Below are positions 6,343-30,458 of a stretch of 64,000 nucleotides of DNA, in pieces. Each line of letters starts with the position of its first letter. The first letter of the stretch is position 1. The stretch lies in the NCBI GenBank assembly GCA_020854815.1, contig JAHKLW010000019.1, forward strand, positions 10,571-74,570, in the 5' to 3' direction. A program made the position numbers and the translations under genes. The stretch comes from Methanofastidiosum sp. GTDB lineage: Archaea > Methanobacteriota_B > Thermococci > Methanofastidiosales > Methanofastidiosaceae. The notes under the pieces were generated by a model that saw only the letters and a program-made list of their open reading frames with translations, had not been told where the DNA came from and did no database searches.

Positions 6343-6417
6343 GGGACCGTGGGGTAGCTTGGCCCATCCTTTTGGCTTCGGGAGCCAGAAACCTGAGTTC
6401 AAATCTCGGCGGTCCCA
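6343..6417 (+). tRNA. tRNA-Pro (anticodon CGG)
   Basis: I hand-folded it. Acceptor stem GGGACCG/CGGTCCC, U8, D-loop with A14/G18G19/A21, anticodon stem TTGGC/GCCAG with loop TTCGGGA (U33, CGG, G37), T-arm CTGAG-TTCAAAT-CTCGG, discriminator A. CCA is not encoded, and there is no intron. An AT-rich TATA-like stretch lies about 25 nt upstream. Confidence 0.7.
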
Positions 6418-6497
6418 TTAAATATATAAATATAAATCTCTTTAATCTATAAGGAATCCTATTTTTTTAGATTAGAGATATCTTGAGGTGTATTTTA

Positions 6498-7640
6498 ATG
6501 GCCGATAAATTGAGAGATGAAATAATGGAAAAAATAAAAAGTGCTACAGGTAATAAACCAACTTTTTGTGTAATAGGTGCCGGAAATGGCGGTCTTGCAA
6601 TGGCAGGATATCTTGCATATTATGGTTTTTCAGTTAACATATGGACCCGAGACAAGGTGAAGATGGAGGCGTTGGCAGCTGCAGGTGGCATTGAAGTTGA
6701 GGGAAAAATAGAAGGGTTTGGAGAGCTAAATAAAACAGATGTAGATTTTCAAAAGTCAATTGAAGATGTAGATGTAATAATGGTCGTCATACCTGCAAAC
6801 GGTCACAGGGAGATTGGTGAAAAACTTGTAAAATATGTAAGGCCTGGGCAAACTATTGTTTTAAATCCAGGCAGAACAGGTGGAGCGTTAGAGCTTTACA
6901 ACATGTTTAGGAAAGAAGGAAAAATAAGAGAAGACCTTATAATCGCAGAAGCTCAGACTTTCTTATTTGTCGCTAGAAAACTCGGAGTCCATAAAGTTAG
7001 GATATTTGATATTAAAAGATCAGTTCCAGTTTCTGCAGTTAGGTCCTATAAGAATCCTGATCTTATTAAAATATTGAGAATGGCATTTCCACAGTTTACT
7101 CCTACATCAGACGTTCTTCACACAAGTTTGGGAAATGTTGCAGTTATGTTCCACCCTGGAGTAATGCTACTTAATACTGGCTGGGTAGAAAATCATGGTA
7201 ATTTTGAATATTATTTAGAAGGGATTTCACCAGGAGTTGCTAAATTATTGGAACATATAGATATGGAAAGAATAAAAATTGCAGAGGCAGTTGGCATAAG
7301 AGTTCCTTCTTTGAAAGATTGGCTCTATTTCTCTTACGGTTCAACTGGTTCTGATCTCTACGAATCAGTACAAACTACCCCTGCGTATAAAGGTGTAATG
7401 GCCCCTCCAACTATCCACCATAGATACATCTTAGAAGACGTTCCAATGAGTCTTGTTCCAATGTCATCACTTGGTAAAAAATTTGGTGTTGAAACAAAAT
7501 GTATTGATTCCCTTATTAATATAGCATGTTGCCAGCAAGAAAGGGATTTTTGGTCTGAAGGCAGAACTGTAGAGCATATGGGGATTAAGAACTTCGACTT
7601 AAAAACAATAAAGAGGCTAATCGCAGGTGAGATAGTATGA
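6498..7640 (+). CDS. NAD(P)-dependent dehydrogenase of the opine (octopine/nopaline) dehydrogenase family
   Basis: N-terminal Rossmann motif 'FCVIGAGNGGLAMAGYLA', and the overall length and pattern resemble the Octopine_DH / ketopantoate-reductase-like fold. The ATG at 6498 follows GAGGTG at 6485-6490. Confidence 0.55.
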   Translation: MADKLRDEIMEKIKSATGNKPTFCVIGAGNGGLAMAGYLAYYGFSVNIWTRDKVKMEALAAAGGIEVEGKIEGFGELNKTDVDFQKSIEDVDVIMVVIPANGHREIGEKLVKYVRPGQTIVLNPGRTGGALELYNMFRKEGKIREDLIIAEAQTFLFVARKLGVHKVRIFDIKRSVPVSAVRSYKNPDLIKILRMAFPQFTPTSDVLHTSLGNVAVMFHPGVMLLNTGWVENHGNFEYYLEGISPGVAKLLEHIDMERIKIAEAVGIRVPSLKDWLYFSYGSTGSDLYESVQTTPAYKGVMAPPTIHHRYILEDVPMSLVPMSSLGKKFGVETKCIDSLINIACCQQERDFWSEGRTVEHMGIKNFDLKTIKRLIAGEIV

Positions 7641-9253
7641 GGGCAGTTCTTGCAACAATAGGGAATTGTATTCACGTTCAAGGAATAAAAAACTTTGAAA
7701 ATTTGTTGATTAGAAATAATATTGATACAGAATTTATTGGAGTATGTGTTGATACAGACAAACTGATAAAAATCATTTTAGAAAAAAATCCCGATATTAT
7801 AGGTCTAAGTTACAGGCTTGAACCCGAAACTGCTAAAATATTATTCAAAAAGTTGAAGAATTCTATTGAAGATAATAAAATTAAATCTAAGTTTTTCTTT
7901 GGAGGAACTCCTGCTGTGTGTGAAATTGCTGAAGAATCTGGACTATTTTCAGGGGTTTTTAGAGGAATAGAAACTGAAGAACAGATACTTGATAAAGTCC
8001 TTGGGAGAGAGGGCGAGTTTAATTCAGTAGAGTATTCTCAAGATCTCTATGAAAGAATTCAAAAATCTTATCCCTTTCCTTTGATAAGACATCATTTTGG
8101 GTTACCTTCTCTTGAAAAAACAATTGAAGGTGTTAAAGAAATTGCAAATAGTAAAACTCTTGATATCATATCCATAGGGCCAGATCAAATAGCACAAGAA
8201 TGTTTTTTTAATCAAGGAAATATTTGTAAAGAGTTCGAAGGTGGTGGTGGGGTACCCCTTCGAAAAAAGGAAGACTTAGGTTCTATATATGAGTCATCAA
8301 GAGTGGGTAACTATCCTCTTTTGAGATGCTATGCTGGCACAAATGATTTGATAAAATGGGGCGATATGTTAAAAGAAACAATTAATAACGCTTGGGGAGC
8401 AATACCCCTGTTCTGGTATTCAGAACTGGATGGGAGGTCAAAAAGGGATTTAGTTAGTGCAATTACTGAAAACCAAAAAACTATAAAATGGCATGCAGAG
8501 AACAATGTTCCAGTTGAGATTAATGATTCACACCAATGGGCCCTTAGAAAAACTACTGACCCCATTGAAGTTGCCTCTGCTTATATCGCAACATATAATG
8601 CTAGAGAACTAGGAGTTAAGTACTACATCCAACAGTTTATGATGAATGTGCCCCCAGAAATTTCTCCTGAGATGGATATTGCAAAAATGTTAGCAAAACT
8701 AGAGATTATATCCGAATTATCAAATGAAGATTTTACAATTCTAAAAATGATAAGAACAGGTCTTGCCTCTCTTTCTGTCGATGAAAACATAGCAAAAGGA
8801 GAACTTGCTTCGTCAATTACAATTGGTATGTATCTAAAACCACATATTGTTCATGTAGTGGGATATTCAGAAGCATATAACGTAGCAACGCCATACGTCA
8901 TCATTGAAAGCTCAAAAATTGCAAGAGGCGTAATAAAAAATTGTCTTAAAGGATTACCTAGCATAGAAGATAACAAGAGGATACTAAAAAGAAAAGAAGA
9001 GATAATCGAGGACACTCGATTGATTATTGAAACTTTGAAATTACTTGGCGAAAGTTCAGATCCTTTAAAAGATCCCTATTCTCTCTATAAAGCTGTTAAA
9101 GTTGGCCTTATGGATGCAGAAAATTTGAAGGGATTTGATCCCGCAAAGGGGACAATTAAAACAGCCGTGATAGATGGAATGGTTCGATGTATTGATGAAA
9201 ATAATGGAGAAGTACTATCTGAGAAGGAGAGAATTAAGAGATTACGTATATAA
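7637..9253 (+). CDS. Uncharacterised protein with N-terminal cobalamin (B12)-binding-like domain
   Basis: Residues 3-110 follow the B12-binding Rossmann pattern: 'AVLATIGNCIHVQG' (the DxHxxG position reads CxHxxG), 'DIIGLSYRL', 'FFFGGTP'. The C-terminal domain of about 400 aa is unassigned. The start overlaps the upstream gene (ATGA). Confidence 0.45.
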   Translation: MRAVLATIGNCIHVQGIKNFENLLIRNNIDTEFIGVCVDTDKLIKIILEKNPDIIGLSYRLEPETAKILFKKLKNSIEDNKIKSKFFFGGTPAVCEIAEESGLFSGVFRGIETEEQILDKVLGREGEFNSVEYSQDLYERIQKSYPFPLIRHHFGLPSLEKTIEGVKEIANSKTLDIISIGPDQIAQECFFNQGNICKEFEGGGGVPLRKKEDLGSIYESSRVGNYPLLRCYAGTNDLIKWGDMLKETINNAWGAIPLFWYSELDGRSKRDLVSAITENQKTIKWHAENNVPVEINDSHQWALRKTTDPIEVASAYIATYNARELGVKYYIQQFMMNVPPEISPEMDIAKMLAKLEIISELSNEDFTILKMIRTGLASLSVDENIAKGELASSITIGMYLKPHIVHVVGYSEAYNVATPYVIIESSKIARGVIKNCLKGLPSIEDNKRILKRKEEIIEDTRLIIETLKLLGESSDPLKDPYSLYKAVKVGLMDAENLKGFDPAKGTIKTAVIDGMVRCIDENNGEVLSEKERIKRLRI

Positions 9254-9267
9254 TAGTTATTAACTAA
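9254..9267. repeat. TAGTTATTAAC motif copy (candidate partition site)
   Basis: The same 10-11-mer recurs at 10436-10446 on the + strand and at 10461-10470 on the - strand, flanking the parA-RHH operon. Confidence 0.35.
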
Positions 9268-9312
9268 TATATATTAAATAATATCTATTATATAATAAAT
9301 ATTAATTAATAT

Positions 9313-9654
9313 TTATTTTAAAAGTGCAGGATCTCTTTTATCGATATATTCTTTTATTGCTTCTTCGACAGTTGAACTTCTTTCCCCAGTATTTAGTGCT
9401 ACTTTTATGGATCTTGGAATGCCCAACTTATCTTTTATTAACGTGTCTAGAGCATTTACAAGTTCTTCGTCAAGTGAAAAACTTTTAATTATCTTTTTCT
9501 TTTTATATAGAGACTTTTCTTCTTCTTTATGTGTAAAGCGTTGGGTCATTATTTCCTTTTTTTCCTTCTCGTGATCAATTTCCTCTTTAGTTAGGATAAC
9601 TCTTCTTTGTATTTCTTTCTCCAAATCATTCTTTAACCCGTCAGTTAAGGCCAT
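9313..9654 (-). CDS. Ribbon-helix-helix DNA-binding protein (ParG-like partner)
   Basis: C-terminal 'SFSLDEELVNALDTLIK' is a typical RHH beta-strand and helix. It lies immediately downstream of parA, with a TGATG start/stop overlap. The start is ambiguous between 9681, 9657 and 9654. Confidence 0.55.
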   Translation of the reverse strand: MALTDGLKNDLEKEIQRRVILTKEEIDHEKEKKEIMTQRFTHKEEEKSLYKKKKIIKSFSLDEELVNALDTLIKDKLGIPRSIKVALNTGERSSTVEEAIKEYIDKRDPALLK

Positions 9655-10397
9655 CATATCCCCTCCAATACTCTTTTGCACAATTGAATATAATCATAGG
9701 CTCCTCTTGAGTTCAAAGAATGTTCAAATATAGTCTTTCCAAGAGCGAAACTTTCAGATAATTTAGTATCAATTCGGATATATGGGCTTATTATGCCCTT
9801 AAAATGGTCCATCCCATCAAAGAATTCAAGATATTCTTTAGTTCTTTTTACCCTTTCATCTACAAATGTTGGAACAATAAGGTCTATTTTCAGATCTTTT
9901 TGGAAGTCTTCTCTTAAATCATAAATAAGTTTGTCAACTTTGAAAAGACCTTTTACTGAAAGATATTCCATTGAGACTGGCACAAGTAGCTTTTTACAAA
10001 AATTTAGTGCATTTTCGTTAAGTATTCCGAGTCCTGTTTGACAGTCTATGAGTGCAAAGTCATAGTTAATTCCTTCTAGGCGCTTCTTTAAAGCATTCTC
10101 TCTATTTCTCCAACCTACCATTTCTAGGGCAACTTGAGATATTGTTTCGTCTGATGCCAATAAATCCAAGTTCTTTCTAGCACCCACAATACATTCCTCA
10201 AAAGGTGCTTCGTCTTTTAGTAGATGATAAATGCTTTTAGTAAATTTAACTCCCAAACATTCTGCATCGTTACCTTGATCATCTATATCTATAATGAGTA
10301 CCTTTTTTCCAGTGAGCGCAAGCGCATGCCCTAGGTTTATAGTCGTGGTAGTTTTTCCAGTTCCACCTTTTTGATTGTATATGGCAATAGTTTCCAA
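9654..10397 (-). CDS. parA: ParA/ParF-type partition ATPase
   Basis: Deviant Walker A 'KGGTGKTTTTINLG' and 'IIDIDDQGN'. The likely start is the TTG at 10397, 4 nt after AGGTGA, giving '(M)ETIAIYNQKGG'. The track's ATG at 10433 adds 12 non-conserved residues. Confidence 0.8.
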   Translation of the reverse strand: METIAIYNQKGGTGKTTTTINLGHALALTGKKVLIIDIDDQGNDAECLGVKFTKSIYHLLKDEAPFEECIVGARKNLDLLASDETISQVALEMVGWRNRENALKKRLEGINYDFALIDCQTGLGILNENALNFCKKLLVPVSMEYLSVKGLFKVDKLIYDLREDFQKDLKIDLIVPTFVDERVKRTKEYLEFFDGMDHFKGIISPYIRIDTKLSESFALGKTIFEHSLNSRGAYDYIQLCKRVLEGI

Positions 10398-10435
10398 GAT
10401 ATCACCTATATTAATAAATATTATATAACACATAT

Positions 10436-10470
10436 TAGTTATTAATTGATATGTATTATATAATAACTAA
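10436..10470. repeat. Two TTAGTTATTA(A) motif copies in inverted orientation upstream of parA
   Basis: TTAGTTATTAA at 10436-10446 and its reverse complement at 10461-10470. Confidence 0.35.
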
Positions 10471-10637
10471 TAACATTATTTATAAGTGTTTTGGCCCTAA
10501 AAATGCATGTTTTTAACTGTTTAGAGTGGGCTAGTTAACGAAGAAACAACATTTAGACCAAGTATATAAATGAAGTGTAAAATATCTTCTATATGTAATA
10601 ATTAATAAATAATAAATATTAGCTAATAGCTATTAAT

Positions 10638-10931
10638 CTATTCAATTAGATTCCCATCTGGGTCTATTAGAATACCTTTTTTCTCAAGATTCTTTCTTAA
10701 TCTCCAAAAAGAAGTAGTTGAAATGCGTTTTTTTGCTTCTTTGAGAAATTTTTCAGCGTTTTTAGGGCTAATAAAGTGTCTTTTAACGAATTCTGTTTCT
10801 ACAAGCATTATCCTATTTTTTCTTCCGCCGCTACCTTTAGATTCTATTAATTTTATTTCACGTTCAATAGCTCTTATCAGTTCTTCTCTGGAAATACCAT
10901 ATTTTTTTGATAACTGGGTTTCTATATCCAA
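10638..10931 (-). CDS. Small basic putative DNA-binding protein
   Basis: 97 aa and Lys/Arg-rich, with a helical 'GISREELIRAIEREI' segment. No confident family assignment. Confidence 0.3.
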   Translation of the reverse strand: MDIETQLSKKYGISREELIRAIEREIKLIESKGSGGRKNRIMLVETEFVKRHFISPKNAEKFLKEAKKRISTTSFWRLRKNLEKKGILIDPDGNLIE

Positions 10932-11117
10932 TAATAAGCCTCCTGCATTTCAAAATTCTGTATTTTGAAATAGAAGAAGTTAATCTATTAATAAGTGTTA
11001 GCTTTTAGGGTTCTTATGCAAATTCGAGGCTTTTGCCGTTTTTGCAATAAAATTTCTTCTGGTTATGCATTTCGAGGTCTGGAATGTATTTTCTAAAAAT
11101 TTGATTAAAATAGGAGA

Positions 11118-11438
11118 GTGATAAATATGGAAAATGTAGAAAAAACAGATAAAAATATAAATAAAAAAGAAAATTCAAAAAGAAACGAAGATAAAGAAAA
11201 TGGAGATAATATGGTAAGAAAAAAAGCAATATCTCGACCGTTTAGAAGTTCTTTGGACATAGCCCCAGTGTTAATAGCTTTTGTAGCAGGTGCTATGTTT
11301 TTGACGGGATTTCTTTTTTCGATAGTTTACATATCAAAAGGAATATCGTCCATCATTGAATTTTTATCAAGTTTTGGTATGGTTATATTAGCCATTGCAC
11401 TTTTGGGGATAGCAATACTTTCGTTCATACGAAGATAG
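11118..11438 (+). CDS. Small membrane protein (inside IS element)
   Basis: Charged N-terminus followed by 2 TM helices. Confidence 0.35.
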   Translation: MINMENVEKTDKNINKKENSKRNEDKENGDNMVRKKAISRPFRSSLDIAPVLIAFVAGAMFLTGFLFSIVYISKGISSIIEFLSSFGMVILAIALLGIAILSFIRR

Positions 11439-11446
11439 GGATATTA

Positions 11447-11737
11447 ATGGATATTAATGACTTATTAAAAATACTTTTAGAAGAGTCAAAGATTAAAGTA
11501 TTTTTAGGAGTATTAATATTCATATTTTCACTTACAATTTATTCAAATTTTTACAAAAATGATTTAATGAGATTAACAGAAATAAATAGGTCTAATACTA
11601 TCGAAATGATTTTTCAAATGTTTATTATTGGGGCGATTCCTACTTTTTTGATAATTTTGATACTTACTAGTGGGTTATATTTACTTTATTATCTTGTAAC
11701 AAAACATCCAGAGGATAGATGGAGACCTACTCAATAG
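11447..11737 (+). CDS. Small membrane protein (inside IS element)
   Basis: 2-3 TM helices; no family recognised. Confidence 0.35.
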   Translation: MDINDLLKILLEESKIKVFLGVLIFIFSLTIYSNFYKNDLMRLTEINRSNTIEMIFQMFIIGAIPTFLIILILTSGLYLLYYLVTKHPEDRWRPTQ

Positions 11738-11921
11738 AAAATAAAAAATAAAAGTTACTGCTTTCTTACAACAATAACTTTCTCACCGTTCACAAACTCA
11801 ACATCCCAAGACAATGTGTCGCCGTTTTTTAGTTCCATCAACTGGCTTATTGCCGTTGGGATTATTGTCTTTAGGGAGTTGTACCCACTTTTTACATAAG
11901 ATACCTTGCTTGTTACCTTAC

Positions 11922-13088
11922 TCATCTTTTCACCTTAACACTCTGTTTGATAAGACCTTCCCACTTGTTGCCTTCCAAGCCCAGTTCAATGCCTGCCATC
12001 TGTGCGGGTGTCTTGCCATTCAAAGCTTGGTGTGGTCTTATGAAGTTGTAATACGCCTTGAAGCCGTCAACAAAGTCCTTTGAAGGCTCGACCTTCTTCA
12101 ATCCTCTCTGCACTTTGTTCCTCTGCCTCATCGAACCGTGAAGCCTTTCTATCTTGTTGTTGTTCCGTTCCTTGTTTGTGATTGCTATTTCCCTGATGTG
12201 CGTTGTGTTCCTCCCGTCGCCTTTTCGGTGTGTCTGGAACTCTTTTCTTACCGCTTCTTGGTAGGCATTAAGGCCGTCAGAAACTAAAATGGTTGGCGTA
12301 ATTCCAGTCACTTGCTTTGCCTCTTTCATCGGCAGTCTTGCGGTATCGACATCCCTTGTCTTACCTTCCGAAATCATGGACGAAATAAGAAAGCGTGTAT
12401 CCGTGTCCATCAAGTTCCAGAGCCAGTTCCATTCACCGTTACACTTCAAGGCCATCTCGTCTATCGCCCACATGCCGGACACGTCGGGAGTAAGTGTCCT
12501 TGTATAGTCTGAAATCAAGGATAGGTATTTTCTTATCCATCGTGATACTGTGGACTGATTGACGGTCACGTTGTAGAACTGTGCCAAGTGCTGTGCTATG
12601 TCGTTCTGTGACACGCCTTTGAAGTACAAATCAAGAGAGAGGACTATTACCCTCTGGTCGCTTGTGTTGTACTTGAACCCGTCATCAATAGAGAATCGCT
12701 TGTTACAGTCCTTGCACTGGTACATCTGCTTCATGTTGTTCTTATTCTTTCTAAATCCTTTCTTTGATAGATTGGTAGAGTTGCAGTTCGGGCATTTTGT
12801 TTTTGTGTCCTTTTTTGGTGTGAATATTCTTGCCTTTGCTTCATCTTCAATCCTGTTTTTCAACTTCATCCAGAATTTCACGGCGTTGATATGCTTGCAC
12901 TCTGCATGCCTATAGAAGTGGTCGGGACAATTGCATGTCCAGACTTTGTAGCCGTGCCTTACCAAATAATACCCTTTTCCACTTTGCGAGTGGATTTTAA
13001 ACTTGTCGTGACTGACCTCGATTGGTTCGTCACCCTTGGCTATGATTGCATAGCCCCTAATCATTCTACTGTTTGTGGTTAATACCAT
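11922..13088 (-). CDS. DDE transposase, IS6-family-like with N-terminal SWIM/zinc-ribbon extension
   Basis: Catalytic triad context 'WAIDEM', 'ILVSDGLNAY', and 'NNNKIERLHGSMRQR', an IS26-like E-x6-R signature. N-terminal 'CNCPDHFYRHAECKH' and 'CPNC...CKDC' zinc fingers. This block is about 47% GC against about 32% around it. Confidence 0.7.
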   Translation of the reverse strand: MVLTTNSRMIRGYAIIAKGDEPIEVSHDKFKIHSQSGKGYYLVRHGYKVWTCNCPDHFYRHAECKHINAVKFWMKLKNRIEDEAKARIFTPKKDTKTKCPNCNSTNLSKKGFRKNKNNMKQMYQCKDCNKRFSIDDGFKYNTSDQRVIVLSLDLYFKGVSQNDIAQHLAQFYNVTVNQSTVSRWIRKYLSLISDYTRTLTPDVSGMWAIDEMALKCNGEWNWLWNLMDTDTRFLISSMISEGKTRDVDTARLPMKEAKQVTGITPTILVSDGLNAYQEAVRKEFQTHRKGDGRNTTHIREIAITNKERNNNKIERLHGSMRQRNKVQRGLKKVEPSKDFVDGFKAYYNFIRPHQALNGKTPAQMAGIELGLEGNKWEGLIKQSVKVKR

Positions 13089-13178
13089 TTCATCGCCATA
13101 AACTTGTAGGCTTTTCTAGTATTTAAGCTTTACGGTAGGAATTACTACCTAAAATATAAGATAAAAGGAGGTTGTTGT

Positions 13179-13337
13179 ATGAGAAAAATAATTGGGATTC
13201 TAAACAAACAAGTAAATATAGGGCATGAAAGACATATGAAATTATGGGAAGTGTTATTTTTTATACTCACATTTTTTTGGGGAGTTATTCTTGTTGAGAT
13301 TATTGACTTCATCGTTGTTACTTTTTTGTTGGATTAG
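13179..13337 (+). CDS. Possible 52-aa membrane peptide with strong SD
   Basis: AAGGAGG at 13165-13171 sits 7 nt before the ATG. It is hydrophobic, and it overlaps the 3' end of the 13254..13811 ORF convergently. Confidence 0.25.
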   Translation: MRKIIGILNKQVNIGHERHMKLWEVLFFILTFFWGVILVEIIDFIVVTFLLD

Positions 13338-13811
13338 AGCCAATACAGTTAGTATGAATATTATTATCGCTATGGTAAGTACATAATAAAAAAATCTTAT
13401 TGCCTCTTTTGTTTTGTCAATAACATCAGTATAATTGGATATGCCTCCAACTATAATCGCGGAACTTGAACGCGTACAAACATTGAAAATACAAATAGAG
13501 AATGCTATTAATACAACATACATAAATTTGCTTAGTCTATACCTTTCTTCTTTATATAAATAGATTAATGCTATTAAAATAAATCCAAGTATTGTAAGGC
13601 TAGATTGAATCATTACAGAATTAAGCAACACTAACTTATCAATCAACAAATTATTAATGGATACGTTCTCATTTTGTTCGATGGGAATGATATTTAGAAC
13701 ACTATCTAAATCTGGTAAAACATATAAATTCATAATCACTAAAGCAAATATAATAAATCCAAGATCTAACCAATTATCTTCAATAAAATTTTTGACCTTT
13801 TCAAAACACAT
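13254..13811 (-). CDS. Integral membrane protein (inside IS element)
   Basis: 185 aa with about 5 TM helices; no family recognised. Confidence 0.4.
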   Translation of the reverse strand: MCFEKVKNFIEDNWLDLGFIIFALVIMNLYVLPDLDSVLNIIPIEQNENVSINNLLIDKLVLLNSVMIQSSLTILGFILIALIYLYKEERYRLSKFMYVVLIAFSICIFNVCTRSSSAIIVGGISNYTDVIDKTKEAIRFFYYVLTIAIIIFILTVLALIQQKSNNDEVNNLNKNNSPKKCEYKK

Positions 13812-13907
13812 ACATCATTTTTTTATCAACTACTTTATATTTTAACCCTACATTCTTTGCGAAAGTTTCAAATTATTTCAATTAATCTTATTAAGAAGCA
13901 AATTAAT

Positions 13908-13951
13908 CTATAATAGTCCGCTGAAAGTGGTTAAGGACATTTCATCGCCAT
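13908..13951 (-). pseudogene. Remnant of transposase 5' end
   Basis: The sequence ATGGCGATGAAATGtccTTAACCAC matches the 5' region ATGGCGATGAAATGgtaTTAACCAC of the intact transposase at 13078-13102. The reading frame ends after 10 codons. Confidence 0.6.
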
Positions 13952-14125
13952 GATTGTTCTTGCTACCAGCATAGGACTTTTTGCAATAAATTTACAACGA
14001 GACCTCGACTTGCATAAGGGATTTTAGTAAAAGTCTAGGTCACGAATTTGCATAAGAACCGCTTTTAGAGTATTAGGCTATAAATTAGTAATAAAATCTT
14101 TTATATATAAATTTATATATTATAA

Positions 14126-28627: not shown

Positions 28628-30070
28628 CTAAACAAGTCTATGTTGAATTGGAGGTACATAACTAGCTACTTTCTTGATTTTAAAATCATTTTCTAAAAGA
28701 GATTTAATCTGTAATGGCGGAACTCCCAAGGATATTTCTCTTGTTCTCCCATATCTTCCCTTACTAACAACTTTTGCGTTTAGAATACCAAGCATATCCA
28801 GTTCTGATATCAAATCAGATACTCTTCTTTGAGTAAGATTATCAAGTTTCAAAATATTGCTTAAGTCTTTGTATATGTTAAATACATCTCCTGTAATAAT
28901 CTCCCCAGGCATGTATTTTTCTAAAAGGTATACAGAATAAAGAATAAGTTTTGATTGTGTGGGAAGTGTTTTAATTACTTCAGAAATTCTATCCTGTTCA
29001 ATTCTATCCTTTGCAACTCTTACGTGAGGTTCTGTAACTTTTTTGGCATTTTGTCTTTCAGCTATCTCACCGGCTGTTCTTAAGAGGTCAAGAGCCCTCC
29101 TAGCGTCTCCGTGCTCTTGAGCTGCGAAAGCTGCACAAAGTGGTATTACACCAGGAGTGATTGCTGATTCATTAAACGATATTTTTGACCTATCTTCCAA
29201 TATATCCATTAGTTGCGGTGCATCATAAGGCGGAAATATAATTTCCTCTTCACCAAGAGAGCTCTTCACTCTAGGGTCCAAAAACTCGATGAATTTTAAA
29301 TCATTTGAAATGCCTATGATACTGACCCTAGCGTTTTCCAAGTCCCCATTAATTCTCGTTAAATTATAAAGAACATCATCTCCTCCTTTTTTGAGGAGCT
29401 GGTCAACTTCATCAAGAATAATAATAACAAGTTTCTTTTCACTATCAAGACTCTGAGAGAAAACGTCATAGATTTTATCTGTAGGCCAACCCGTAAGGGG
29501 AACTGACTGACCAAAGTATTCGGATAATTTTGATAGTAGCCTATATTGAGTATCTACTACTTCACAATTAATATAAATAAAAGTAATTGGCATATCCATT
29601 TTAACATTTGAATTAAGATCAGGTTTTGGAAGTCCTGTATTACAATCAATTGAAGGAGAAGTTTTCAAAAATGCCTTCCCACCAACTTTTTTTACAAGGC
29701 CGTTTCCAACATATTTTACAACGACTGTTTTACCTGTCCCAGTTTTACCATAAACAAAAATATTTGAAGGTGTTTCACCTTTAAGTGCGGATACTAATAT
29801 AGCTGCAAGTTTTTCAATTTCATTTTTTCTATGTGGTAATATTTCAGGAGTATATGAATGGCGTAAAACTTCTTTATTTTTAAAAATTGAATTAGACAAA
29901 AGAAGTTCATCAAATAAGTCATCGAGTGATGATTGTTTATTTGACATGAAATCTTCAACACTTGAAGCAATAGTATATTGTAGCTCCTCTTTGTCTGAAA
30001 CTTCAGAGAAAGTTTTTGTCTTAGAATTTTCGTCGTATTTTAAAGGTATTCCTGCGTTGTCACCATTCAA
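28628..30070 (-). CDS. orc1: Orc1/Cdc6 replication initiator
   Basis: 'LPHRKNEIEKLA', Walker A 'GKTGTGKT', Walker B 'IILDEVD', a sensor region, and a C-terminal winged helix. An N-terminal extension of about 70 aa. Confidence 0.9.
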   Translation of the reverse strand: MNGDNAGIPLKYDENSKTKTFSEVSDKEELQYTIASSVEDFMSNKQSSLDDLFDELLLSNSIFKNKEVLRHSYTPEILPHRKNEIEKLAAILVSALKGETPSNIFVYGKTGTGKTVVVKYVGNGLVKKVGGKAFLKTSPSIDCNTGLPKPDLNSNVKMDMPITFIYINCEVVDTQYRLLSKLSEYFGQSVPLTGWPTDKIYDVFSQSLDSEKKLVIIILDEVDQLLKKGGDDVLYNLTRINGDLENARVSIIGISNDLKFIEFLDPRVKSSLGEEEIIFPPYDAPQLMDILEDRSKISFNESAITPGVIPLCAAFAAQEHGDARRALDLLRTAGEIAERQNAKKVTEPHVRVAKDRIEQDRISEVIKTLPTQSKLILYSVYLLEKYMPGEIITGDVFNIYKDLSNILKLDNLTQRRVSDLISELDMLGILNAKVVSKGRYGRTREISLGVPPLQIKSLLENDFKIKKVASYVPPIQHRLV

Positions 30071-30119
30071 TTATATCACACTACTACTTTACTAATAACT
30101 ATCCTTTTTATATATTTCT

Positions 30120-30145
30120 CCCACCCCCTTATTTCCTTTGGAGAT
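30120..30145 (-). repeat. Origin recognition box (ORB-like) 1
   Basis: The reverse complement ATCTCCAAAGGAAATAAGGGGGTGGG carries a TCCA..GGA dyad plus a G-string, like archaeal ORB elements. Confidence 0.55.
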
Positions 30146-30149
30146 TTAC

Positions 30150-30395
30150 TTTAATAAAAAAAATTTGATTGAAAAGAAAAGAATCTGCACTATTTTAAAG
30201 AAACAGAGGTTAATTTGGCCTTTTCTATAATAATATCTTTTAGTTAAAATTTAAGATTATATAGATTTAATCTGTGTTTGTTTGCTCAAATGATTTTTAT
30301 GATAGGAAAAATTTATATAGTTAAAAAAACATATTTAATTAGGAATCTATAAAAATTTGTATTAGTTAGTAAAAACAAATAATAAAAATTTGTTT
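30150..30395. other. AT-rich duplex unwinding element of predicted oriC
   Basis: About 245 bp of more than 85% A+T, lying between inverted ORB-like boxes and next to orc1. Confidence 0.5.
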
Positions 30396-30420
30396 CGAGT
30401 GGAAGTAGAGGGGTATCCCT
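30396..30420 (+). repeat. ORB-like box 2 (mini-ORB)
   Basis: CGAGTGGAAGTAGAGGGGTATCCC shares a GGAAnTA..GGGGT core with box 1, in the opposite orientation. Confidence 0.5.
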
Positions 30421-30458
30421 GTAAATAATAATTTAAATGAATATTCCATTATTCTATT

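Follow-up and report, generated by a model that had tools for sequence, protein, structure and literature searches.

A 64 kb stretch of a contig from Candidatus Methanofastidiosum sp. (the window; all coordinates below are window positions) carries a two-gene operon on the minus strand, in which parA, the gene of a ParA-type ATPase, is followed by the gene of a 113-residue partner protein. The operon is flanked on both sides by arrays of a 7-bp repeat. With moderate confidence, we interpret this locus as a core chromosomal module of the genus for ParA-based positioning or partition, in which a type Ib or SegAB-like gene layout is combined with an omega-like heptad centromere/operator. The host is an uncultured archaeon related to methanogens, and our search of the literature found no work on ParA systems in Methanofastidiosa. 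The first-pass annotation of this DNA had described a ParF/ParG-like partition cassette that was either a remnant of an integrated plasmid or a chromosomal positioning system, and it is the latter option that fits the data presented here.

Operon structure and heptad arrays

The features that make up the locus are as follows.

9654-10397, minus strand: parA, encoding a 247-residue ParA/Soj-type deviant Walker ATPase; TTG start codon, TGA stop codon at 9654-9656
9313-9654, minus strand: partner gene, 113 residues, stop codon at 9313-9315; predicted N-terminal helical region, linker YKKKK and C-terminal domain
10402-10406, minus strand: Shine-Dalgarno-like GGTGA, 4 nt 5' of the TTG; AGGTG is invariant in 6/6 aligned sequences
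9251-9313: downstream heptad array, nine perfect contiguous TAWTANN units in strictly alternating orientation (><><><><>); holds the decamer copy at 9254-9263
10412-10474: promoter-proximal heptad array, ~9 units in phase, some of them degenerate; three perfect ones at 10454-10474; candidate operator
10596-10637: distal upstream heptad array, six contiguous TAWTANN units, or seven with a degenerate unit from 10589; holds TAGCTAATAGCTATTAA
10638-10931, minus strand: gene of a 97-residue protein, directly precedes the par operon in all cases; possible third component

The TGA stop codon of parA is spanned by ATGATG, and the start of the partner gene overlaps it by 1 or 4 nt. This overlap, which implies co-expression of the two genes, is kept in all lineages. 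The parA gene begins with the TTG at 10397, and GGTGA (10406 to 10402) precedes it. All orthologues keep both the start and the Shine-Dalgarno sequence, with ATG in place of TTG in one of them. An alternative ATG at 10433 falls in a stretch that is missing from two lineages.

The first-pass annotation had reported several copies of a decamer on both sides of the operon, and these are present essentially as described: TAGTTATTAA occurs exactly at 9254-9263 and 10436-10445, and TTAGTTATTA lies inverted at 10461-10470. Two details required correction, as the copy at 9253 reads ATAGTTATTA instead, and the longer related sequence TAGCTAATAGCTATTAA is located at 10620-10636, one base away from the position reported. 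All of these copies turned out to be pieces of three arrays of a 7-bp repeat. In its unit, TAWTANN, two variable bases follow the pentamer TAWTA, which stands for TATTA and its reverse complement TAATA.

The downstream array fills the whole gap between two convergent stop codons. Tandem Repeats Finder (TRF) assigns it periods of 14, 21 and 28, and its self-identity is 0.67 at a lag of 7 and 0.78 at a lag of 14. The distal array begins directly after the stop codon of the 97-residue protein gene, about 200 bp upstream of the parA start codon, and has a TRF period of 7 and a lag-7 identity of 0.68. The promoter-proximal array, which holds the inverted pair TAGTTATTA (10436-10444) and TAATAACTA (10461-10469), lies between a TATA-like box and the parA start codon. 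Its lag-7 identity of 0.54 compares with a background of 0.37 ± 0.07 and a background maximum of 0.52, as obtained from 55 other AT-rich segments of the window.

At least three consecutive TAWTANN units are found at only three places in the 64 kb (9251-9313, 10454-10474 and 10596-10637). The three-unit pattern has 12 matches in the window, all at the flanks of the operon, against 0.00 expected from dinucleotide shuffles. When four units with up to two mismatches are required, 17 matches are found against 0.07 expected from shuffling, and they are confined to 9251-9318, 10412-10472 and 10589-10635. The matches at 10412-10472 show that the promoter-proximal region is also an in-phase, partly degenerate array. 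At the level of single motifs, TAGTTATTAA has 4 copies in the window against 0.49 expected. The par intergenic DNA (356 bp) contains TAGNTATTA six times, compared with four times in the other AT-rich segments, which add up to 4,950 bp. This in-window enrichment test is circular because the motif was picked from these same regions. In total, the window holds 16 copies of TAGNTATTA against 6.1 ± 2.6 expected, 6 of them at par; the ten other single copies are not clearly above chance as dispersed extra sites, and none of them forms an array.

The comparison with related genomes is free of this circularity. Our comparison set comprised five orthologous Methanofastidiosum loci of 6-16 kb each, with 73-84% DNA identity to the window. 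All of the 4-6 copies of TAGNTATTA per locus are located in the two par intergenic regions, and every array of at least three TAWTANN units flanks the same operon. Neither TAGNTATTA nor heptad arrays occur in the other 1.1-2 kb of AT-rich DNA of these five loci or elsewhere in them. Far from being equally frequent throughout the DNA, which the first-pass annotation had named as evidence that would speak against its reading, the copies and arrays are specific to the par flanks. In each of the five lineages examined, the intergenic regions on the distal-upstream and downstream sides have a lag-7 identity of 0.62-0.81. Synonymous sites are saturated between the lineages (the proportion of synonymous differences, pS, is 0.64-0.83, and the number of synonymous substitutions per site, dS, is >1.4 or not computable), and at that divergence neutral intergenic sequence is not expected to stay recognisable.

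The arrays vary in position and in unit number between lineages, with 5-8 units upstream and 4-9 downstream. Distal-position arrays of 5-8 units are present in all lineages and are duplicated in two of them (L001 and L004), the promoter-proximal block is kept in all lineages, and the downstream position is occupied by an array in all five orthologous lineages. This includes L004, where the genes that neighbour the array in the window are missing but the array is still found beside the operon, with a tRNA gene as its new neighbour. As the array remains with the operon when the neighbour changes, the arrays belong to the operon. Among 108 heptads from five lineages, the orientation transitions are >< in 27 cases, <> in 25, >> in 24 and << in 10. 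The arrays are probably the binding sites of this system.

The duplication mentioned above has a distinct appearance: at 6862-7095 of L001, and in the same region of L004, about 230 bp upstream of parA are bounded by two copies of the heptad block TAGTTATTAATTATTAATTAATATTTATTA. A scan of public genomes for six consecutive TAWTANN units was uninformative on the distribution of the element; among the matches listed were 7-mer tracts from cyanobacteria, Bacteroidota and others, and no Methanofastidiosum.

The region upstream of parA

Besides the arrays, the 240-bp intergenic region upstream of parA contains three further elements.

10476-10494, minus strand: candidate archaeal promoter, purine-rich sequence CCAAAACAC resembling a B-recognition element (BRE), followed by the TATA-like box TTATAAATAA
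10519-10539, minus strand: conserved non-repeat block TAACTAGCCCACTCTAAACAG, GC-richer and in the middle of the intergenic region; kept in 4/5 lineages
10562-10570, minus strand: second TATA-like box TTTATATAC, near-consensus archaeal, a short way downstream of the distal array; shared by the window, L011 and L005

From its agreement with the archaeal BRE/TATA consensus, the element at 10476-10494 is a candidate for the parA promoter, and TTATAAA is invariant in the six-sequence alignment. The second box, TTTATATAC, may represent a distal promoter, which would give the operon two promoters, or may give rise to an extra transcript. The TAACTAGCCCACTCTAAACAG block may be the site of another factor, such as the 97-residue protein. 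Neither this block nor the 240-bp region as a whole has an Rfam match or a conserved RNA fold.

The ParA protein

The first-pass annotation had identified the product of parA as a small deviant-Walker ParA whose gene overlaps that of its partner, and both statements were borne out. The protein has the Walker A motif QKGGTGKT, matches Pfam AAA_31 at 1.4e-42 and is 100% identical to an 'AAA family ATPase' of Candidatus Methanofastidiosum sp. at NCBI. It does not have an N-terminal helix-turn-helix (HTH) domain, with the alignments to Soj/ParA structures beginning at residues 3-4. Full-length matches were obtained to Myxococcus xanthus ParA (8ray, 7e-32), Thermus thermophilus Soj (1wcv, 4e-30) and Helicobacter pylori Soj (7e-26). 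ParF (4dzz), on the other hand, aligns over the P-loop alone (residues 1-43, E=1e-6), Sulfolobus SegA (7dut) gives a partial match at 6e-9 over residues 4-159, and the delta protein of pSM19035 (PDB 2oze) is a distant match at E=2.5e-4. ParA thus belongs to the Soj/chromosomal subfamily and is not of the ParF type.

In a set of 5.8 billion proteins, the identity of ParA to its homologues falls from at least 90% within the genus directly to 48% outside. The closest relatives outside the genus (45-48% identity) adjoin a canonical ParB, and in the two closest of them a ParB gene (ParB_N and HTH_ParB domains) directly follows parA. The best plasmid ParA is only ~37% identical, which is below the identity to the ParB-linked metagenomic ParAs. 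In the window itself, tblastn with two ParB sequences gave no match, and the gene downstream of parA encodes no ParB domains. The parS palindrome TGTTNCACGTGAAACA has one match with 3 mismatches in the window, against 1.42 expected by chance.

A separate clade of ParA homologues with 42-44% identity has its genes between fliM and a fliN-like gene in bacterial flagellar export operons (L016, L138 and L139).

The partner protein

The partner is predicted to consist of a helical N-terminus, a Lys-rich linker (YKKKK) and a C-terminal domain. A word-based search found homologues only within the genus, with 86-93% identity, and an exhaustive search with a HMMER profile against 1.84 billion cluster representatives returned three matches, namely the cluster of the genus and two fragments. 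At the sensitivity of these searches, homologues of the partner are confined to the genus, and the partner matched none of 72,556 plasmids. Its ratio of nonsynonymous to synonymous substitution rates (dN/dS) is ~0.02-0.03, equal to that of parA; the gene is real and constrained.

The family signals of the partner are weak, and they are of one kind. The Pfam family RHH_1, which represents the ribbon-helix-helix (RHH) fold, matches with E=0.039 over the full length and with 0.0009-0.0026 when the C-terminal 60 residues are used, in all cases below the gathering score. The top four Pfam matches of these 60 residues (RHH_1, RHH_3 at 0.003, VapB_antitoxin and 56B_RHH) are all RHH or RHH-type antitoxin families, and the top PHROG family is an 'Arc-like repressor' (0.0047, sub-threshold). 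The best PDB sequence match is the RHH protein SvtR/56B, at E=0.1-0.3 and over the last helix alone. The AlphaFold models are of low confidence, with a predicted local distance difference test score (pLDDT) of 61 for the full protein and of 72 for the C-terminal domain, and three fold searches gave no significant match. The C-terminal domain may be an RHH with an inserted short helix, and we infer an RHH-like fold and a DNA-binding role for the partner. We also considered the N-terminal 'GLK' of the partner as a ParB-like ParA-binding motif and rejected it, as the resemblance was too weak.

Genomic context

The locus is core, syntenic and chromosomal. The gene order of the 97-residue protein gene, parA and the partner gene is conserved in at least 4 further lineages, which is every lineage with enough flanking sequence, and the partner is found on contigs of up to 1.58 Mb. 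The neighbours on one side are genes for a CTP synthase, a SIS-domain protein and tRNA-Pro; on the other side they are genes for a DUF123 protein, a methyltransferase and an ABC transporter. The 97-residue protein also has homologues only within the genus, and its dN/dS is 0.03-0.09. Its sole family hint, and the only sign of the DNA binding that the first-pass annotation had ascribed to an adjacent small protein, is a match to the N-terminal half of the Fur-regulator model at E=0.003. In Fur, this half is the winged-helix DNA-binding part.

The operon is also close to a candidate replication origin.

28628-30070, minus strand: Orc1/Cdc6 gene (Cdc6_C 4e-29, Cdc6_lid 3e-28), ~18 kb from the par operon
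30123-30136, minus strand: box GGAAATAAGGGGGT, resembling an origin recognition box (ORB)
30401-30414, plus strand: ORB-like box GGAAGTAGAGGGGT

The two ORB-like boxes are inverted relative to each other and lie in the region upstream of the Orc1/Cdc6 gene (30071-30458), with ~265 bp of AT-rich DNA between them; we settled on this pattern of boxes post hoc and applied it to the window. We regard this region as a candidate origin, located ~20 kb from the par operon.

Comparison with known partition systems

By analogy, the closest functional counterpart of the locus would be the delta/omega system of plasmid pSM19035. There, the parS sites overlap promoters, and each is a run of 7-10 adjoining 7-bp repeats, which may be direct or inverted. 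Every repeat is bound by one RHH dimer, and ParA is activated only if at least 4 units are contiguous (PMC9499535). Both systems pair a small Walker ParA with a small partner, here putatively an RHH protein, and both have contiguous heptads of mixed orientation, 7-10 units there and 6, ~9 and 9 units here. The arrays of 6 and 9 perfect units each exceed four contiguous heptads, and a degenerate array of ~9 units is located near the promoter. Because an array lies over the promoter, the heptads could act both as operator and as centromere. However, the heptad is WATCACW in pSM19035 and TAWTANN here, the partner has no detectable similarity to omega and matches neither Omega_Repress nor omega, and its N-terminal region is predicted to be helical rather than disordered. 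In addition, the system described here is chromosomal and archaeal.

A likeness of another kind is found in par2 of pB171, a type Ib system, where iteron clusters also flank an operon of parA and a small parB on both sides and the upstream cluster is also an operator. It differs in that pB171 is an enterobacterial plasmid and its iterons are 6 bp long, as opposed to the heptads found here, and no sequence relationship to the partner was detected. The order of elements in par2 is parC1-parA-parB-parC2, which places centromeres on both sides of the operon (PMC4270457).

The type Ib layout recognised by the first-pass annotation is indeed present: the ParA is small and of the Walker type, the gene of its small partner overlaps parA, and the operon has repeats at either side. 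Its assignment to the ParF/ParG family did not hold up, as ParF matches the P-loop only, Soj proteins match over the full length, and the closest ParA relatives outside the genus adjoin ParB. The system described here is moreover chromosomal, and profile and PDB searches with the partner recovered neither ParG nor another ParG-like family. In the ParF/ParG system of TP228, the protein encoded after the small ParA is itself small, with an N-terminus that is flexible or activating and an RHH domain at its C-terminus, and the repeats lie upstream. This architecture is summarised in PMC8682754.

The SegAB system shares with the locus an archaeal chromosomal operon in which a ParA-type ATPase gene is overlapped by the gene of an archaea-specific protein of ~110 residues. 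SegB is an RHH protein with a SegA-activating N-terminal tail, its gene overlaps segA, and its sites lie upstream of segA; the operon is located near an origin and is known from Sulfolobales and also from Thermococcus and Methanobacteriales (PMC8682754, PMC12139799). The likeness is one of architecture only, namely the overlapping genes and the repeats upstream of the operon. SegB proteins carry the signature (K/R)(D/N)P(K/R)I(G/T)(V/L)WS(Y/P)(P/E) (PMC12139799). A regular-expression search did not find it in the partner, which contains no Trp and in which only KRDP resembles the start of the motif, and a profile search of all PDB chains with the partner at E<=10 did not recover SegB. The partial SegA match of 6e-9 is worse than those of Soj proteins by ~20 orders of magnitude, so that ParA is not an orthologue of SegA, and SegB sites are 23-bp imperfect palindromes instead of heptad arrays.

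Finally, the locus resembles the bacterial ParABS system (Soj/Spo0J) in that its ParA belongs to the same sequence family, its nearest relatives outside the genus are linked to ParB, and the operon is near a candidate origin. It differs from ParABS in having no ParB in the window, no parS above chance and a partner unrelated to ParB. By these comparisons, the system is not a member of the ParF/ParG family (ParA clade, replicon), of SegAB (motif, homology, SegA orthology), of ParABS or of the omega family.

Proposed mechanism

The following mechanism is modelled on the systems described above. The partner would dimerise via its C-terminal, probably RHH-like, domain and bind TAWTANN heptads cooperatively, with one dimer per heptad or heptad pair, as omega does on pSM19035 parS. 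The 6-unit and 9-unit arrays, coated by partner dimers, would form the partition complex, that is, the centromere. The degenerate array between the BRE/TATA-like element (10494 to 10476) and the start codon would be the operator, at which the partner would block the recruitment of RNA polymerase and so repress its own operon. The Soj-like ParA would bind the nucleoid non-specifically as an ATP dimer, and the N-terminal region of the partner (L5-V21, including K10, K15 and R19R20), which is conserved, would stimulate ATP hydrolysis. The resulting diffusion-ratchet movement would separate the sister copies of the region located ~18-20 kb from Orc1/Cdc6. Autoregulation, ATPase stimulation and the chromosome as cargo are all suggested by analogy.

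As to the origin of the system, we put forward a more tentative scenario, to which we give slightly less than an even chance. In an ancestral Methanofastidiosum, a bacterial-type ParA without ParB, which was lost or had never been there, could have been paired with a newly evolved small DNA-binding protein that recognised flanking omega-like heptads ~20 kb from oriC. This would constitute a third independent archaeal segregation machinery besides SegAB and AspA/ParB/ParA of pNOB8 and, if true, a natural case of the replacement of a centromere-binding protein on a conserved ParA motor.

Alternative explanations

Several observations weigh against a partition module of this kind. All RHH-clan matches of the partner fall below the curated threshold, and in its predicted domain the two canonical RHH helices are separated by an additional one. 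The ParA subfamily by itself predicts neither an RHH partner nor a DNA cargo, since among its nearest relatives some are paired with ParB and others are encoded in flagellar operons. TAWTA, the core of the heptad, is very rich in A+T and similar to a TATA box, so that other proteins, such as the TATA-binding protein, chromatin proteins or the 97-residue neighbour, could bind it. Furthermore, our survey of arrays covered the 64-kb window and the five loci of 6-16 kb, and arrays may occur elsewhere in the genome. One alternative is that ParA positions a non-DNA cargo, for example the division site or a protein complex, with the 113-residue protein being a lineage-specific adaptor and the arrays serving as operators or terminators only. 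Relatives of ParA and MinD do perform such positioning, as exemplified by McdAB, MipZ and FlhG, and the relatives with 42-44% identity that are embedded in flagellar operons indicate that this ParA subfamily has been recruited to non-DNA roles. The adaptors of cargo-positioning ParA systems tend to be charged and to have no wider homologues, and the partner is highly charged (25 Lys and Arg, 24 Asp and Glu residues) with no homologue detected outside the genus; the fold searches were negative. However, an operator needs few units near the promoter, whereas here six units ~200 bp upstream and nine units downstream are both conserved. The only family signals of the partner are to DNA-binding RHH families, and the operon is located ~18 kb from Orc1/Cdc6. 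We consider a non-DNA cargo unlikely. Less probable still is a three-component system, in which the 97-residue protein would recognise the heptads, similar to AspA of pNOB8, and the 113-residue protein would chiefly act as the bridge to ParA and as its activator. The gene of the 97-residue protein is always adjacent, is restricted to the same genus and is under purifying selection, the distal array starts right after its stop codon, and its product has the weak match to the N-terminal half of Fur (E=0.003). A precedent for an extra archaeal DNA-binding adaptor is pNOB8 (cited in PMC12139799). Yet this gene is separated from parA by 240-390 bp with its own TATA-like boxes and hence is not in the overlapping operon, the 97-residue protein has no significant family or fold evidence, and the RHH-type signals sit in the 113-residue protein.

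The proposal of the first-pass annotation that the cassette is what remains on the chromosome of an integrated plasmid or mobile element has fared worse: as a recent event it is largely refuted, and we consider it very improbable in general. It is true that a type Ib-like layout is typical of plasmids, that an IS6-like transposase gene is located 1 kb from the gene of the 97-residue protein and tRNA-Pro is 2.9 kb away, and that outside the genus neither ParA nor either small protein has relatives of intermediate identity, which is compatible with a single acquisition. But the synteny with housekeeping neighbours is identical in at least 4 further lineages, and the partner is encoded on large contigs, as described above. 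The transposase lies inside a 3,086-bp insertion (11007-14092) that is missing from the orthologous loci L011, L005 and L001. No integrase, replication or conjugation genes are present among the called genes of the loci, and no repeat of tRNA-Pro of at least 12 nt occurs elsewhere in the window. The partner matches no plasmid, ParA is only ~37% identical to plasmid ParAs, and the strong purifying selection on both genes indicates that the cassette is not decaying. As for the repeats being chance low-complexity DNA, the genome is ~65% A+T with very AT-rich intergenic DNA, and the motif was chosen after inspecting the regions. This explanation can already be considered refuted, with hardly any probability left to it. 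The 12 and 17 matches observed contrast with the shuffled expectations of 0.00 and 0.07, 0 of the 55 other AT-rich segments reach the lag-7 signal of the arrays, and the pattern is replicated independently in five diverged loci, with every match at the par flanks despite the saturation of synonymous sites.

Significance

Archaeal chromosome segregation is largely open outside Sulfolobales, where only SegAB has been studied. A chromosomal partition module as proposed here would be a compact euryarchaeal candidate, with two or three small proteins and repeat arrays of 42-63 bp, and it can be tested in vitro or in a heterologous host despite the organism being uncultured. What appears to be new is the pairing, on an archaeal chromosome, of a ParA of the Soj type with a small-protein family and a centromere-like heptad element that are themselves new; the principle is already familiar. 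If the proposal is true, a ParA of the Soj type can function with an unrelated small partner and heptad centromeres, even though the CTPase ParB is the usual partner of its relatives. The locus thereby bears on the exchange of partners by ParA motors in evolution and on the wider validity of the rule of at least 4 contiguous heptads derived from pSM19035.

Other features of the neighbourhood

The lineage-specific insertion at 11007-14092 and the region beyond the downstream array contain the following genes.

11922-13088, minus strand: IS6-like transposase gene, in the insertion, ~1 kb from the 97-residue protein gene
11755-11925, minus strand: AbrB/MazE-like open reading frame of 56 residues, in the insertion; overlaps the transposase start
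11118-11737, plus strand: two small membrane-protein open reading frames, in the insertion
13254-13811, minus strand: membrane-protein open reading frame of 185 residues, in the insertion
7637-9253, plus strand: gene of a 538-residue protein with an N-terminal B12-binding domain (7e-10); its start overlaps the stop of the gene at 6483-7640
6483-7640: gene of a 381-residue protein resembling octopine dehydrogenase and NAD_Gly3P_dh; its stop is overlapped by the start of the 538-residue protein gene

The remaining ~430 residues of the 538-residue protein have no Pfam or NCBIfam match. A comparison of L004:8343-8504 with window 6343-9253 shows that the pair of genes for the 538- and 381-residue proteins is missing from L004, where the downstream array abuts tRNA-Pro. 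The pair thus represents an insertion or a deletion beside the tRNA gene.

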